IMG/VR virus record: IMGVR_UViG_2698536533_000008
Reading direction: 5' to 3' (one strand)
DNA from: a virus
Lineage: Duplodnaviria; Heunggongvirae; Uroviricota; Caudoviricetes
Length of the DNA: 4,413 nt
This document shows, piece after piece, positions 54 to 4,413 of the stretch. Position 1 is the stretch's first letter, and each line of letters starts with the position of its first letter. Under the pieces are notes generated by a model. The model ran no database searches, was not told the DNA's origin, and saw nothing but the letters and a program-made list of their open reading frames with translations. The translations under genes and the position numbers were made by a program.

Positions 54-260
54 ACACTAAATCAGTAAGTTGGCAGCATCACCGTTTTAACGTTACTAAT
101 AAATCGTGAAACAATCTCCTCATTTGTTAGTATTTTCGCCTGAGCACAGCAAGAGGTTAATATTGCAACCGTCATTAAAAATGGCTTTATCACAAAACAA
201 ACTCCATTGTTAGCATGTTACGCGATAATTTTGCCTCATCTTTCACCACAAAAAAAGAAC

Positions 261-1823
261 TCACCTTTTAAATGGAGAATACCCAACATCATGGGTGATT
301 TTCATAAAGGGATCGCCTGTTTTCGGCAAATCGATAACGCGCATTCCAGGCGGCGCGTTGTCAAACGTCACCTTAAGTTCGCTGCGGGTTGCCGGTGAAG
401 ATGCAAGGCTTAACAGCTGATTCCTTTCCAGTGATACATTCGGGGTGTAGCGTTTATCGGGAGATAAATACCCATCACCACGTGGCATCTGCCATCCGGT
501 CATGTCATAGACAAAATCATGGAACTGTTTGCCCCACTCGTCGAACTTATCATTCAGACCAAATCCACTGTTCAGTGCATCAGCCACAAAATTTTTAACA
601 AGCCAGGGATGTGCTTTTTCAAACTCCTGCGCCATCATGCCCAGTTCAAGCAATCCACCAATCAGACTGATCTTTCCGAGGCCCTTTAATTTCAGCCCTG
701 TTTTTCCTGCCGCCGTTGTCCATTGATTCTGGGCGACTGTTGCCGCACGAATACTTGCCACCGCCTTCACACCAATATACAGGGCAGAAACCGTTGCTAT
801 TGTTTTTACTGCCTGTTCCCATCCCCCCATTGCTCTGACAACCTGATCAACCTCCTGCCAGACTTTTTTCACAACCGGACCGACCGTTTCCCAGTTATCA
901 ATTATGAGATATGCACCACCGACGAGAAGCGCAATTAATCCCTTTGCCGGCGTCATATTCATCACGCTACCCATGATTTTTGTTATGCGTGTCAATGTGC
1001 CAATCGCCACGCCCATCGTCAGTAATGCCGCACCAGTTTTCGCGATGGTTTTTACGACCTCAGGATTTTCTCTGACAAACGTGCGCACTTCTTCCAGAAA
1101 AGGCTTCATCTCTTTTATGCCTTCATTGAGTGAAGGCAGGAAGGTTTCCCCCNNNNNNNNNNNNNNNNNNNNNNNNNNNNNNNNNNNNNNNNNNNNNNNN
1201 NNNNNNNNNNNNNNNNNNNNNNNNNNNNNNNNNNNNNNNNNNNNNNNNNNNNNNNNNNNNNNNNNNNNNNNNNNNNNNNNNNNNNNNNNNNNNNNNNNNN
1301 NNNNNNNNNNNNNNNNNNNNNNNNNNNNNNNNNNNNNNNNNNNNNNNNNNNNNNNNNNNNNNNNNNNNNNNNNNNNNNNNNNNNNNNNNNNNNNNNNNNN
1401 NNNCCCCATTCCGGCAATGGTTGCCCCCATTGCGGCAATCTCTCCGGAGGCCACACCCGCAACACTGCCTAAAGGGCCAATACGGGTCACAACATCAGAA
1501 ATCTTTTTCGCACTTGCAGGACCGGTATTACCAAGATAGTTAATCTTATCCGCAAGCCCTGCCACCTCTCCCTGTGTCAGTTTAAAGGCAGTGCGCCACT
1601 GCGCCATCATCTGACCGGATTCTTCTGCCGTGGTGTCAAAGGCCACGCCCATCTTCACGGCATCGTCAGTAAACTGCATCAGCTCGTCACGGGCGATACC
1701 AGCCTGACCACCCGCCGCCACAATTTCGGCGATACCTTCCGCCGACATGGGCAGTTCTGTTGACAGGTCGCGCACCTGCTCCGTCATTGCCTTAAACGCT
1801 TCCGGCGTATCCAGACCATCCAC
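261..1823 (-). CDS. Phage tail tape measure protein (TP901/P2-T-like core); 5' end incomplete, start lies in or beyond masked block 1824-2075
   Basis: Long minus-strand ORF with TGA stop at 261-263, stop-free to the mask at 1823 and in frame across the internal N block 1153-1403. The N-terminal region (AEGIAEIVAAGGQAGIARDELMQFTDDAVKMGVAFDTTAEESGQ...) has the Ala/Gly-rich helical character of tape measure cores, followed by hydrophobic segments (LIALLVGGAYLIIDNW, ISLIGGLLELGMM). It sits directly downstream of a chaperone gene. The visible ATG at 1821-1823 abuts the mask and is probably not the true start. Confidence 0.85.
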   Translation of the reverse strand: MDGLDTPEAFKAMTEQVRDLSTELPMSAEGIAEIVAAGGQAGIARDELMQFTDDAVKMGVAFDTTAEESGQMMAQWRTAFKLTQGEVAGLADKINYLGNTGPASAKKISDVVTRIGPLGSVAGVASGEIAAMGATIAGMGXXXXXXXXXXXXXXXXXXXXXXXXXXXXXXXXXXXXXXXXXXXXXXXXXXXXXXXXXXXXXXXXXXXXXXXXXXXXXXXXXXXXGETFLPSLNEGIKEMKPFLEEVRTFVRENPEVVKTIAKTGAALLTMGVAIGTLTRITKIMGSVMNMTPAKGLIALLVGGAYLIIDNWETVGPVVKKVWQEVDQVVRAMGGWEQAVKTIATVSALYIGVKAVASIRAATVAQNQWTTAAGKTGLKLKGLGKISLIGGLLELGMMAQEFEKAHPWLVKNFVADALNSGFGLNDKFDEWGKQFHDFVYDMTGWQMPRGDGYLSPDKRYTPNVSLERNQLLSLASSPATRSELKVTFDNAPPGMRVIDLPKTGDPFMKITHDVGYSPFKR

Positions 1824-2075
1824 NNNNNNNNNNNNNNNNNNNNNNNNNNNNNNNNNNNNNNNNNNNNNNNNNNNNNNNNNNNNNNNNNNNNNNNNNNNNN
1901 NNNNNNNNNNNNNNNNNNNNNNNNNNNNNNNNNNNNNNNNNNNNNNNNNNNNNNNNNNNNNNNNNNNNNNNNNNNNNNNNNNNNNNNNNNNNNNNNNNNN
2001 NNNNNNNNNNNNNNNNNNNNNNNNNNNNNNNNNNNNNNNNNNNNNNNNNNNNNNNNNNNNNNNNNNNNNNNNNNN

Positions 2076-2470
2076 GGCCTCGGCTTCCAGTTCTGTAAAC
2101 TGCGAAACAGCCCCCCGTCGCAGCTCCAGTGGATTCAGTTTCCAGAACCAGGCAACATTGTAGAGTCGTTTCCGGAGGTGCTTCCCGTCTCCGACTGGGT
2201 AAAAAAACGCAGGATCTGCATGCTGGTCTTAAAAATATCCAGTTTTGCCATCTGCGCCGCCGATGAACGCGGGATCCCCGCCAGCAACGGGATATATTTC
2301 AGTGCCACCTGGCTGTCCAGTTTAATACTGCCTTCACCGGAAATAATGAAAGGAAAACCCAGCGCCTCGATTTCGTCATACGTGGGCTCGCGCAACTCCA
2401 GCACATGCAGCATTTCGTTATGCGCTGTCACCGGTTTTTTTAAAACTATTTCTGTAACGTTCATTGCCAT
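2076..2470 (-). CDS. Predicted -1 frameshift-extended chaperone product (E+E' / G-T-like); visible part only, extension continues into masked block
   Basis: After codons F89-F90 (TTT TTT) a -1 slip gives ...RFF-YPVGDGKHLRKRLYNVAWFWKLNPLELRRGAVSQFTELEAEA... The -1 frame has its last upstream stop at 2229-2231, contains no ATG/GTG/TTG between there and 2076, and is stop-free to the mask. It can therefore only be expressed by frameshifting from the chaperone frame. Confidence 0.45.
2135..2470 (-). CDS. Phage tail assembly chaperone (P2 gpE / lambda gpG-like), 111 aa
   Basis: ORF from ATG 2468-2470 to TGA 2135-2137. A GGGAGGG Shine-Dalgarno lies 8 nt upstream. The start overlaps the upstream gene's stop as TAATG. 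It is a small protein between tube and tape measure and contains a T7 slippery run near its 3' end with an open -1 frame. Confidence 0.7.
   Translation of the reverse strand: MAMNVTEIVLKKPVTAHNEMLHVLELREPTYDEIEALGFPFIISGEGSIKLDSQVALKYIPLLAGIPRSSAAQMAKLDIFKTSMQILRFFTQSETGSTSGNDSTMLPGSGN
2173..2193 (-). promoter_or_regulatory. Possible frameshift-stimulating stem-loop 7 nt downstream of the slippery site
   Basis: Inverted repeat CGGAG (2173-2177) and CTCCG (2189-2193) with an 11-nt loop. On the mRNA it lies 7 nt 3' of the T7 run. The stem is only 5 bp, so this is weak. Confidence 0.25.
2201..2207 (-). promoter_or_regulatory. Slippery heptanucleotide for programmed -1 ribosomal frameshifting (T TTT TTT on coding strand)
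   Basis: Seven consecutive T on the minus strand (A7 on +), positioned so the 0-frame codons are TTT TTT preceded by T. This is the same class of site as the T-run used for P2 E/E+E' frameshifting. Confidence 0.5.
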
Positions 2471-2836
2471 TACTGATACCCTCCCTCTTCGCCGTGGAAT
2501 TCAAGATCTGCCGTGCCTTCTTCGGCATTATGATTAGCCTCTCCGTGCAGCCATGCCGCCGAAAGCACATACACCATGCCGNNNNNNNNNNNNNNNNNNN
2601 NNNNNNNNNNNNNNNNNNNNNNNNNNNNNNNNNNNNNNNNNNNNNNNNNNNNNNNNNNNNNNNNNNNNNNNNNNNNNNNNNNNNNNNNNNNNNNNNNNNN
2701 NNNNNNNNNNNNNNNNNNNNNNNNNNNNNNNNNNNNNNNNNNNNNNNNNNNNNNNNNNNNNNNNNNNNNNNNNNNNNNNNNNNNNNNNNNNNNNNNNNNN
2801 NNNNNNNNNNNNNNNNNNNNNNNNNNNNNNNNNNNN
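2470..2836 (-). CDS. Putative tail tube protein; only the C-terminal 37 aa (2470-2581) are readable, the 5' part is masked
   Basis: Readable C-terminus is ...GMVYVLSAAWLHGEANHNAEEGTADLEFHGEEGGYQ with TAA stop at 2470-2472 overlapping the chaperone ATG (TAATG). Assignment rests on position between sheath and chaperone and on the roughly 120-codon space available. The start coordinate is an estimate. Confidence 0.5.
2479..2485 (-). promoter_or_regulatory. Shine-Dalgarno sequence of the chaperone gene, embedded in the 3' end of the tube gene
   Basis: GGGAGGG on the minus strand, 8 nt upstream of the ATG at 2470. Confidence 0.6.
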
Positions 2837-4323
2837 TCCTCTGAATACTGAAGACGGAACTGGTTAACCACCGCAAAGACACGTAACTGATTAACATAAT
2901 CCGGCGGGAACAGCGTATTCAGTCGGTTCGGGTTATCTGCATCACGCTCAACTATCAGATACTGTTTAAACAGATCGTAATTTTCCACAATACCGGCACG
3001 CTCCATCTGACGATATGTCGCCAGAAGTTCCCCTTTGATAACGGCAGGAGTGACAATCGCCTGCCCCGGACCAAAACGGGTACCATCATTTGCCAGCTTG
3101 TGACGTCCGTACTTGCTTGTGATGACCGATTTCAGTTTGCGAAGAACATATGCACTGGTATGCAGAGTTTCACTGTCCAGATAGCTGTTGTCTGCCACGC
3201 CATACGCATTCTTTTTGTAGGTGGTTACGGAACGCTGGATCTGCAACGTGCCGCCTTCCACATAAGCCGTCGCCACGCCGTGAGATAAAAGGGTCTGCTG
3301 CTCTGTCATGATGAATCGCTTACCTTTCGGTGCCGGAAGCATCCCCACCAGCTCCCCCGTCTGTGTCGGACGGGCAGGATCATTCCGGATAAATACCGCT
3401 TCACGGGCAAGGCGACTGGCAACCAGTTCATCGACAGGCGACTGGGTTTCTTTTTCGTAACCGGCAAGCGTGATATGTTGCTGATTATGCATATCTCCGG
3501 CACCAACCAGCTCTGACAGCGTTCCCAGTTTTGCGGTATAGCCATGCCCGTATAACTGGCGCGCATAACTCCAGCGACCGCTGCTGTCATTCATTTCGGT
3601 CATCATCATATTGATGGAGGCGGCATCGTTGAACGGCAGACCGATAAAGTCGAATGCCTCATCGCCCATAGCAGCAACAGCGGCGGTAAGATCAGGCGCT
3701 CCGCTACCGGCAGCACCGACTTCCGTCACCACCCGAAGCCCTGCTGGCAGAATCTCACCACCACCAGAACCATAATAATTCAGACAGACCGGTAACTCAT
3801 TACCATACAGCCCCTTATGACGGGCAGTCAGCGTCACCACACCTGCATCAGATGACGCCGTAAACGGCAGGGTGATAACCCCGTTTACCGCTTCCTTAAT
3901 CGCGGTGGCAACCGCAGTGGCATCATCGCCATTCACCACAGGCACCTGTACACGGGAGCGCCCGACATACAGACTCAGGGTGCCGCTTTCCTCTGCTTCT
4001 CCGGCAACCGTCACCCTGACCGTCGCCGCCGCCCCTCTGGCTTCCGGTACTGCAATAACATACAGTTCACCGAAAGGATCTGTCTGACGGTAGACTTCCA
4101 CCATACGCGCCAGCTGGCTCCCCGCCCCACAAATCTGGCGGGCATAATCTGCCGATGGCATCAGCACCAGGCTGTTAACCTCAATGGCTGCATCGTTGCT
4201 GGCATGCCCGATCAGTAATGCAGGCGCGCTGGTCACCGCTGTATTTGCCGCAGAATTGTTCATCTCGGCGTAGAACAACGGCACCAGCGTATTCGACGGA
4301 ACAGTATTAAAACTTATCGTCAT
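2837..4323 (-). CDS. Contractile tail sheath protein (Mu gpL-like family); about 495 N-terminal residues readable, 3' end in masked block
   Basis: ATG at 4321-4323, stop-free to the mask at 2837. The N-terminus MTISFNTVPSNTLVPLFYAEMNNSAANTA... and its length match the Mu-type sheath family from memory. It is the first gene of the sheath-tube-chaperone-tape measure order. Confidence 0.8.
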
Positions 4324-4338
4324 GATTTTTTAGCCTTA

Positions 4339-4413
4339 TCCTTGAGGTGTACTGGCAATAGCGGACACTACCATTTGTTCTTTTTTTAAGCAGCCATCTG
4401 ATGATATTTTTCC
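4339..4413 (-). CDS. Possible 3' end of an upstream minus-strand gene (unassigned); very short fragment
   Basis: A minus-strand frame is open from the window edge to a TAA at 4336-4338 (…GKISSDGCLKKEQMVVSAIASTPQG*), 12 nt before the sheath ATG. A second frame is also stop-free here and the region is AT-rich, so this is weak. Confidence 0.25.

Follow-up and report, generated by a model that had tools for sequence, protein, structure and literature searches.

Tail assembly chaperone pairs made by frameshifting, such as lambda G/GT and P2 E/E+E', are reportedly a class treated by Xu, Hendrix and Duda in 2004. The locus considered here, in which a programmed -1 ribosomal frameshift is likely to operate by the evidence of its sequence, is the tail assembly chaperone gene of a phiP27/SfIV/ST64B-type prophage. 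It lies within a 4,413-nucleotide (nt) stretch of DNA from a member of the Caudoviricetes (IMG/VR virus record IMGVR_UViG_2698536533_000008), and this whole stretch is referred to below as the window. Prophages of the phiP27/SfIV/ST64B type have a contractile tail, and their tail genes other than the chaperone are Mu-like.

In lambda, G and GT arise through a low-level -1 shift that leaves the two proteins at a ratio of about 30:1; the domain that they share binds the tape measure and the extension of the longer form recruits tube subunits (PMC5009743). In the P2 record NC_001895, E has 91 amino acids (aa) and E+E', a joined coding sequence (CDS), has 142 aa, with the junction annotated as a 'site of -1 translational frameshift'. 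The P2 site is GTC GGT TTT TTG, that is T_TTT_TTG at codons 83-85, and the stop of E+E' overlaps the tape-measure gene T. The arrangement has likewise been described as a translational frameshift in the literature, with no downstream structure reported (PMC3091744). Mu gp41 is reported to use a -2 frameshift (PMC2628397, PMC5009743).

The chaperone gene and its slippery heptamer

The chaperone gene occupies positions 2135..2470 on the minus strand of the window, as an open reading frame (ORF) of 111 codons plus TGA, the translation of which, with a mass of 12.1 kDa, would be the short product equivalent to G or E. This 111-aa protein matches PF10109 (Phage_TAC_7) over residues 8-77 with a score of 29.8 bits, where the curated gathering cut-off is 25 bits, and also matches phrog_166, a family called 'tail protein', at 5e-28. 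The title of PF10109 is 'Phage tail assembly chaperone proteins, E, or 41 or 14', and the family covers P2 E, Mu-like gp41 and gp14. The gene order of sheath, tube, chaperone and tape measure is seen in identical loci of Shigella sonnei, in E. coli and in phiP27. The profile match of the gene, together with its location after the tube gene and before the tape-measure gene, identifies it as a tail assembly chaperone of the PF10109 family. An NCBIfam search gave no match, and a sequence search of solved structures gave nothing relevant. The AlphaFold model of a natural fused relative has a mean predicted local distance difference test (pLDDT) score of 69, with 51-68 in the extension, and showed no significant match to the PDB. 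The best viral structure match, the 'tape measure chaperone' of Burkholderia phage Mica (E 0.027, TM 0.38), is weak and is not used as evidence.

An initial annotation, made from the letters of the window alone, had proposed a T TTT TTT heptamer at codons 89-90 of this gene, and the heptamer is indeed present and in phase (2207..2201, minus strand). By direct reading, T_TTT_TTT at 2201..2207 is made of the last base of the Arg88 codon CGT followed by the TTT TTT codons of Phe89 and Phe90, and so falls at codons 88-90 of 111. The minus strand here is ...ATC CTG CGT TTT TTT ACC CAG..., which the 0 frame reads as L87 R88 F89 F90 T91, thereby giving the X_XXY_YYZ phase; the tail of the 0 frame past the slip site is 21 codons long. 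The -1 frame opens past a TAA at 2231..2229, seven codons (DQHADPA) ahead of the two Phe codons, and in the window copy no ATG, GTG or TTG lies in this frame upstream of the site, just as had been described. The frame had also been said to stay open for at least 41 codons into a masked block, and 42 codons are visible. They run from FF onwards (YPVGDG...ELEAEA) up to the mask edge at 2076, and their translation, YPVGDGKHLRKRLYNVAWFWKLNPLELRRGAVSQFTELEAEA, is the visible part of a putative domain equivalent to lambda T or P2 E' (2076..2201, minus strand).

The four unmasked pieces of the window are each 100% identical to Shigella sonnei chromosomes, for example that of strain 53G (HE616528.1; locus L008), of which the window is the reverse complement, and the masked end of the -1 frame can be read from this identical sequence, as the initial annotation had recommended. 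The frame ends 10 codons inside the mask, with VRINEEMKHG followed by TGA (nominal 2043..2075, minus strand; L008 4396-4428), where coordinates inside a mask are nominal and counted from its right-hand edge. The TGA overlaps the tape-measure ATG (nominal 2050..2048) as ATGGCTGA (cATGGCTGA in L008). An early -1 stop combined with an in-frame start for an independent gene, which had been raised as the pattern that would speak against a shift, was not found: in L008 the tape-measure ATG is in the 0 frame of the chaperone and not in the -1 frame, and the -1 frame brings no start of its own to the site. The whole extension after the slip site is 52 codons, and downstream of the site the frame has a single start codon, an ATG that precedes the stop by four codons. 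A start-less overlapping ORF that ends at the tape-measure start is thus present in the window copy, as it is in the relatives. The predicted products are a protein of 111 aa (12.1 kDa) with an acidic tail and one of 142 aa (16.2 kDa) with a basic extension.

A second in-phase heptamer, A_AAA_AAA (TTA AAA AAA, encoding LKK), lies at 2435-2441 on the minus strand, at codons 10-12, and a -1 slip there would end after 5 codons. It is present in 18 of the 58 distinct related loci introduced in the next section, and elsewhere it drifts synonymously (CTT AAA AAA, CTG AAA AAG and others) with the LKKP peptide conserved. As the heptamer is not conserved it was rejected as a second programmed site; it is probably incidental, and could cost slight expression.

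Conservation of the site and of the -1 frame

Searches of species-representative genomes and of IMG/VR yielded 110 loci, 58 of them distinct in the region, with chaperone identities of 40-100%; hosts in the 58-locus set include Shigella, E. coli, Pantoea, Mixta, Mangrovibacter, Lonsdalea, Buttiauxella and Erwinia. At this region the window shares 96-99.8% identity with E. coli prophages and with the Stx2e phage phiP27. The heptamer is in phase in all 58 loci, as TTTTTTT in 55 and as TTTTTTC in the remaining 3, which are the most distant. The run of T never exceeds seven and the bases that flank it are always other than T. Phe89 is encoded by TTT in every case, and the codon before it, which is CGT, AAT, GGT or AGT (Arg, Asn, Gly or Ser), ends in T in all 58. 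The control Phe codons of the invariant GFPF motif in the same genes have TTT:TTC ratios of 26:24 and 12:43. On these codon counts the constraint on the slip site acts at the nucleotide level.

Past the heptamer, the -1 frame is open for 51-57 codons in 57 of the 58 loci, the exception being L057, where an insertion of one G fuses the frames. No upstream start codon in the -1 frame was found in 57 of 58. The -1 stop overlaps the first long downstream ORF, the presumed tape-measure gene, by -5 or -8 in 54 loci; the remaining four are L030 (-77), L057 (+17), and L043 and L060, in which no such ORF was found. The same layout is seen in SfIV, Salmonella phage F1055, SfV, Pantoea AH07, Yersinia YeP2, Edwardsiella EPP-1, Pseudomonas PG1 and DVM-2008 and Burkholderia BgVeeders33. 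These nine sequenced phages carry T_TTT_TT[T/C/G] at codons 83-86, followed by an extension of 52-64 codons whose end coincides with the tape-measure start or lies no more than a few bases from it. Across the 58 loci and the nine further phages together, the heptamer is an in-phase T_TTT_TT[T/C/G] at codons 83-90, and the extension spans 51-64 codons. ST64B, for which there are search matches only, matches the fused query in two pieces, like F1055.

The coding status of the -1 frame was assessed from the mean pairwise diversity at each codon phase in 46 distinct indel-free sequences, a test based on simple counts that is not phylogeny-aware. Upstream of the site the diversity peaks at position 3 of the 0 frame (0.413 vs 0.190 and 0.094), and past the 0-frame stop it peaks at position 3 of the -1 frame (0.403 vs 0.067 and 0.122). 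In the 21-codon overlap between them both third positions are raised, at 0.287 and 0.241. By this pattern of variation the -1 ORF is a protein-coding region, under protein-coding constraint, and as it has no start codon it would be translatable only as a continuation of the chaperone. The extension has the consensus LRxRLYNxAxFWxLNPLELxxxxxSxFxELExEAxRIxEE, within which the motif YNxAxFWxxNP is conserved. Alone, it matches PHROG families of small unannotated phage ORFs (phrog_32181 at 1.7e-5), and the same peptide is also found fused in-frame in natural indel variants. The sequence anatomy of the locus, its family membership, its gene order, the conservation of the site and the coding constraint on the start-less -1 ORF are all shown by the analysis.

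At position 2113 (minus strand), in codon 30 of the extension, S. sonnei has RRGAVS, vs RRVAVS or RRVAIS in E. coli and phiP27. The substitution (GTG to GGG) is non-synonymous and falls where the extension is variable. Across the site (2076-2300), the +1 frame of the minus strand likewise has no stop for about 75 codons. It has the lowest third-position diversity in the relatives, and appears from this to be open by chance and not coding.

Comparison with P2, lambda and Mu

The layout of P2 E/E+E', to which the initial annotation had likened the locus, is the same as that seen here, with the annotated -1 site of P2 at the equivalent codon. Both chaperones have the PF10109 N-terminal domain and both genes sit in the slot between the tube and tape-measure genes. 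At both sites the core is T_TTT_TTN, in the same phase and near codons 83-90, with GGT before it in P2 and in many of the relatives. Moreover, the fused product has 142 aa in both, and the -1 stop and the tape-measure ATG overlap in the form ATGnnTGA in P2 and the window alike. P2 E+E' matches PF10109 with 47.8 bits over residues 7-85 and the distant relative L028 with 61 bits over residues 6-87, so that both matches end at the slip site; the RFF of the window aligns with the GFF of L028. Taken together, these alignments make the site of the window positionally homologous to that of P2. The last base of the heptamer is G in P2 and T in the window, the 0-frame tail is 6 codons in P2 and 21 in the window, and the neighbouring tail genes are Mu-like in the window rather than P2-like. 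The only visible likeness of the extension to P2 E' is the motif VAxxFxWxPxEL.

The logic of lambda G/GT is also shared, in that the chaperone lies just upstream of the tape-measure gene and a start-less -1 ORF is fused to it at a heptamer near its 3' end. The heptamer of lambda is G_GGA_AAG, read by Gly and Lys tRNAs, whereas Phe/Phe are the codons involved here, and the tail of lambda is non-contractile whereas the element in the window encodes a sheath.

With Mu the locus shares Mu-like neighbouring genes (sheath, tube, DUF2635, DNA circularization protein and baseplate) and the same slot for the chaperone. The comparison with Mu-like chaperone pairs that had been suggested did not hold for the chaperone itself: Mu gp41 (144 aa) shows no significant similarity to it, the hhalign match being 15 columns at E 0.078, has no run of T at the equivalent place and, as noted above, is reported to shift by -2. 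A gp41-type chaperone with a -2 shift was rejected, there being no similarity, a conserved coding frame here that is -1, and a +1 frame that is not coding.

Proposed mechanism and alternative explanations

Most ribosomes would stay in the 0 frame and produce the 111-aa chaperone with its acidic tail. In a minority, tRNA-Phe on UUU in both the P and A sites would slip back in tandem by one base on U_UUU_UUU, with perfect re-pairing. The shifted ribosomes would then read the 52 codons of the -1 frame and release a 142-aa fusion (...ILRFF-YPVGDGKHLRKRLYNVAWFWKLNPLEL...KHG) at the TGA that lies over the tape-measure start codon. If the two products behave like lambda G/GT and P2 E/E+E', the tape measure protein would be coated by the N-terminal domain common to both and the extension of the rare long form would recruit tube subunits, with the frequency of slipping setting the ratio of the two. 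We infer in this way that the shift is ribosomal, that its percentage is low and that the two products have these roles.

The efficiency of the shift was considered in the light of possible stimulators. The weak 5-bp hairpin 7 nt downstream that had been noted earlier does exist as a stem, UCGGAG and CUCCGG around an 11-nt loop (2172..2194, minus strand), in which CGGAG at 2193..2189 pairs with CTCCG at 2177..2173 and which starts 7 nt after T7. As a stimulator it finds no support and was rejected. It is no stabler than shuffled sequence (-8 kcal/mol, z = 0.33; 126 of 200 shuffles fold as well) and is not conserved, its middle pair being broken in 14 of 19 relatives; covariation is absent, with no compensatory change and no pair altered on both sides. 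The consensus fold over 137 nt has only -2.9 kcal/mol. The hairpin is probably without function. No GGAG or AGGA that could act as a Shine-Dalgarno-like stimulator was found within 20 nt upstream, and an Rfam scan of the window gave two weak matches only, far below their gathering scores and neither of them near the site. In an E. coli reporter without stimulators, U_UUU_UUU gave 0.33% -1 shifting, the lambda heptamer G_GGA_AAG 0.28%, U_UUU_UUC 0.12% and the P2 heptamer U_UUU_UUG 0.12% (PMC4066793 Table S3). On these rates, bare U_UUU_UUU is at least as good as the heptamers of the proven phage cases. Addition of a strong pseudoknot raised the rate for U_UUU_UUU to 10% (PMC4066793), and H_HH.U_UU.Y is listed as one of the efficient motif classes in E. 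coli.

Several results weigh against a programmed ribosomal frameshift or limit the support for it. The initial annotation had advised aligning the fused product to P2 E+E'; the two are colinear in hhalign, but at a non-significant E of 0.1, and BLASTP finds no match between them. Neither does the extension match PF06528 (Phage_P2_GpE, cut-off 23 bits) at E values up to 10, in the window or in five relatives, a family to which the P2 extension itself scores 78.7 bits. No conserved hairpin, pseudoknot or Shine-Dalgarno-like stimulator was found, so the locus does not resemble the stimulated signals of the dnaX/IS3 type, and the efficiency of the shift could consequently be very low, at about 0.3% in the reporter context. 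The homopolymeric T7 would also permit transcriptional slippage, which gives the same protein, and the extended product of this locus, as of the family, is a predicted one. The 58 sequences are related to each other and are not independent samples, and the window comes from a prophage remnant, as described below, in which selection for the signal is doubtful. Taken alone, moreover, the local features are within reach of chance: the window has 4 runs of T7 or A7 vs 1.04 expected, with as many in 18 of 200 shuffles, and about 10% of shuffles of the stretch contain an open frame of 52 codons. The significance of the site comes entirely from its phase, its position and its conservation in relatives.

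Transcriptional slippage, in which RNA polymerase would stutter on T7 and add one U to give the same 142-aa protein (...RFFYPVG...), is unlikely to be the main route, although the site is a pure homopolymer of seven. In E. coli genes UUUUUUU is under-represented whichever of the three phases it is in, for which Sharma et al. suggest transcriptional slippage or indel mutation as reasons (PMC4066793), and bacterial RNA polymerase slips efficiently on 9 A or T, as exploited by Shigella type III secretion genes (PMC5009743). The lack of a ribosomal stimulator and the existence of a genome with a variant run length (T5 in L123) would also fit with it. The resemblance to known slippage sites, namely Thermus dnaX (T9) and Shigella mxiE, spa33 and mxiA, is that a T or A homopolymer opens another frame, in the latter case in the same host genus. 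Such sites have about 9 A or T, or else a dedicated context element, whereas the run here is only 7, or 6 in the distant relatives and P2, and in the 58 loci it is neither lengthened nor extended by its flanks. Furthermore, the T6C of the most distant relatives and the T6G of P2 are poorer runs for a polymerase and yet still perfect in-phase X_XXY_YYZ heptamers, which, like the phase itself, fits the rules for ribosomal sites, and the P2 site is annotated as a translational frameshift and so described (PMC3091744). Low-level transcriptional slippage may nonetheless occur at T7 and, as the proteins made by slippage and by frameshifting are identical, mass spectrometry alone cannot tell them apart.

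A very improbable alternative is that the -1 ORF is a small gene in its own right, with translation beginning at a non-canonical or downstream start of its own or through re-initiation. Some phage records do annotate small ORFs in the gap, and the PHROG families that the peptide matches consist of proteins of 63-68 aa. Set against this, ATG, GTG and TTG are lacking upstream in the -1 frame in 57 of 58 loci, and in the window copy the sole downstream start lies four codons ahead of the stop. In addition, the opening of the -1 frame is in every case upstream of the heptamer, and the heptamer shows conservation at synonymous positions. That the whole arrangement is coincidence or a relic, with T7 merely encoding Phe-Phe, the -1 frame open by accident and the gap non-coding, is hardly credible. 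In a single sequence taken alone neither T7 runs nor an open frame of 52 codons is rare, the +1 frame is also open by chance, and public annotations show only a gap at this position. Accident would not, however, keep the heptamer, the open frame and its end point down to 40% identity, concentrate variation at the third positions of the -1 frame, fix TTT where the control Phe codons vary, or conserve the YNxAxFWxxNP peptide. A programmed ribosomal frameshift therefore stays the preferred explanation, at the likelihood given at the outset.

Naturally fused variants

In S. flexneri-type copies, one extra G (CTCCGG to CTCCGGG) 28 nt past the slip site joins the 0 and -1 frames. These copies (L057, IMG/VR; P0001, P0003 and P0005), for which the equivalent place in the window is about 2172-2173, carry a hard-wired 142-aa gene (…RFFTQSETGSTSGKRLYNVAWF…). 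The allele with the additional G is widespread in Shigella flexneri, P0003 being found on 661 contigs, and L057 carries the same insertion. The fusion takes another form in the SfIV-like locus L123 (847-857, GCA_045584985.1; P0006), where T5 replaces T7 (CGT TTT TAC) and only a fused 137-aa protein is encoded, with its junction exactly at the slip site. The T5 of L123 may be genuine, as an allele produced by replication slippage, or may stem from an assembly error at the homopolymer.

A more speculative possibility, to which only a small chance can be given, is that the T run is slippery at three levels, those of the ribosome, RNA polymerase and DNA replication. The ratio of the chaperones might then be determined beyond translation alone and be heritably switchable, and the Shigella tail block, bounded by insertion sequence (IS) elements, might perhaps be kept as a tailocin-like element that needs the signal.

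Annotation of the predicted extended product

The 142-aa product is unannotated in the records of phiP27, SfIV, F1055, SfV, Pantoea AH07, YeP2, EPP-1, Pseudomonas PG1, DVM-2008 and BgVeeders33, and in the RefSeq E. coli prophage. The phage records (L002, L113-L118 and L120-L122) have a gap of about 80-140 nt between the chaperone and tape-measure genes and no joined CDS, and the E. coli prophage likewise has such a gap ahead of its tape-measure gene. No report of a frameshift in phiP27, SfV, ST64B or SfIV was found in the literature searched, the scope of which did not take in Xu et al. 2004 and Christie et al. 2002. The frameshift product thus seems to be systematically missed in this group of phages. 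By its sequence features, the locus is a textbook tail-chaperone frameshift, strongly conserved, in a family where it is unannotated and with a site homologous to that of P2. The main value of the finding is for annotation, and the understanding of frameshifting or of tail assembly is unchanged by it. Through the P2-type T_TTT_TTN site common to the group, Mu-like tail modules are connected with a P2-type chaperone, and the locus provides a clean comparative example of a stimulator-less U_UUU_UUU site.

Neighbouring genes and state of the prophage

On the minus strand of the window, the tail sheath gene (start at 4323) is followed by the tail tube gene, the 111-codon ORF and the tape measure gene. 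Only the 3' end of the tube gene is visible (2470..2581, minus strand), with its start under a mask and its stop TAA at 2472..2470, as established from the sequence and from gene calls in the identical loci. The final A of this TAA is the first base of the chaperone ATG; the gene calls of the identical loci place the tube at 3645-4001 and the chaperone at 4001-4336. The tape measure protein gene, which matches PF10145 and is likewise called in the identical loci, extends over 261..2050 (minus strand) in coordinates that are distorted by two masks. In the unmasked S. sonnei sequence its product has 649 aa by those gene calls, and there is RefSeq annotation of the gene in L001 and L002.

The masks at 1153-1403, 1824-2075 and 2582-2836 consist of 251, 252 and 255 N, vs real lengths of 419, 244 and 254 nt in S. 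sonnei. Since they alter the length of the sequence, reading frames are not traceable across them in window coordinates. The seeming continuity of the -1 frame with the tape-measure frame in window coordinates is an artefact of these length-changing masks and was rejected as such. The list of ORFs made by program contains two entries of this origin, a '617-aa' sheath that enters the tube gene and a tape-measure ORF that seems to lie in the -1 frame of the chaperone.

The right end of the window (about 4343-4413), just upstream of the sheath gene, is an end of IS600, an element of the IS3 family, and the left end (1-83) is the end of an IS1 and takes in the beginning of insA. Upstream, IS4-like and IS3-family elements stand in place of the head genes in the identical S. 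sonnei loci. The IS1 and IS600 edges, together with the replaced head genes, mark the locus as a prophage remnant of Shigella sonnei. The signal is intact in this remnant, yet it probably no longer serves virion production in the present host.

The identical loci carry insA/insB at the place of the left end, and E. coli FDAARGOS_944 is without the insertion. IS1 lies about 178 nt beyond the tape-measure stop, across window positions 84-260 from it, a position that in FDAARGOS_944 (L001 2120-2602) is inside a gene for a hypothetical protein of 160 aa, so that this gene is interrupted in S. sonnei; phiP27 is without the 160-aa gene altogether.

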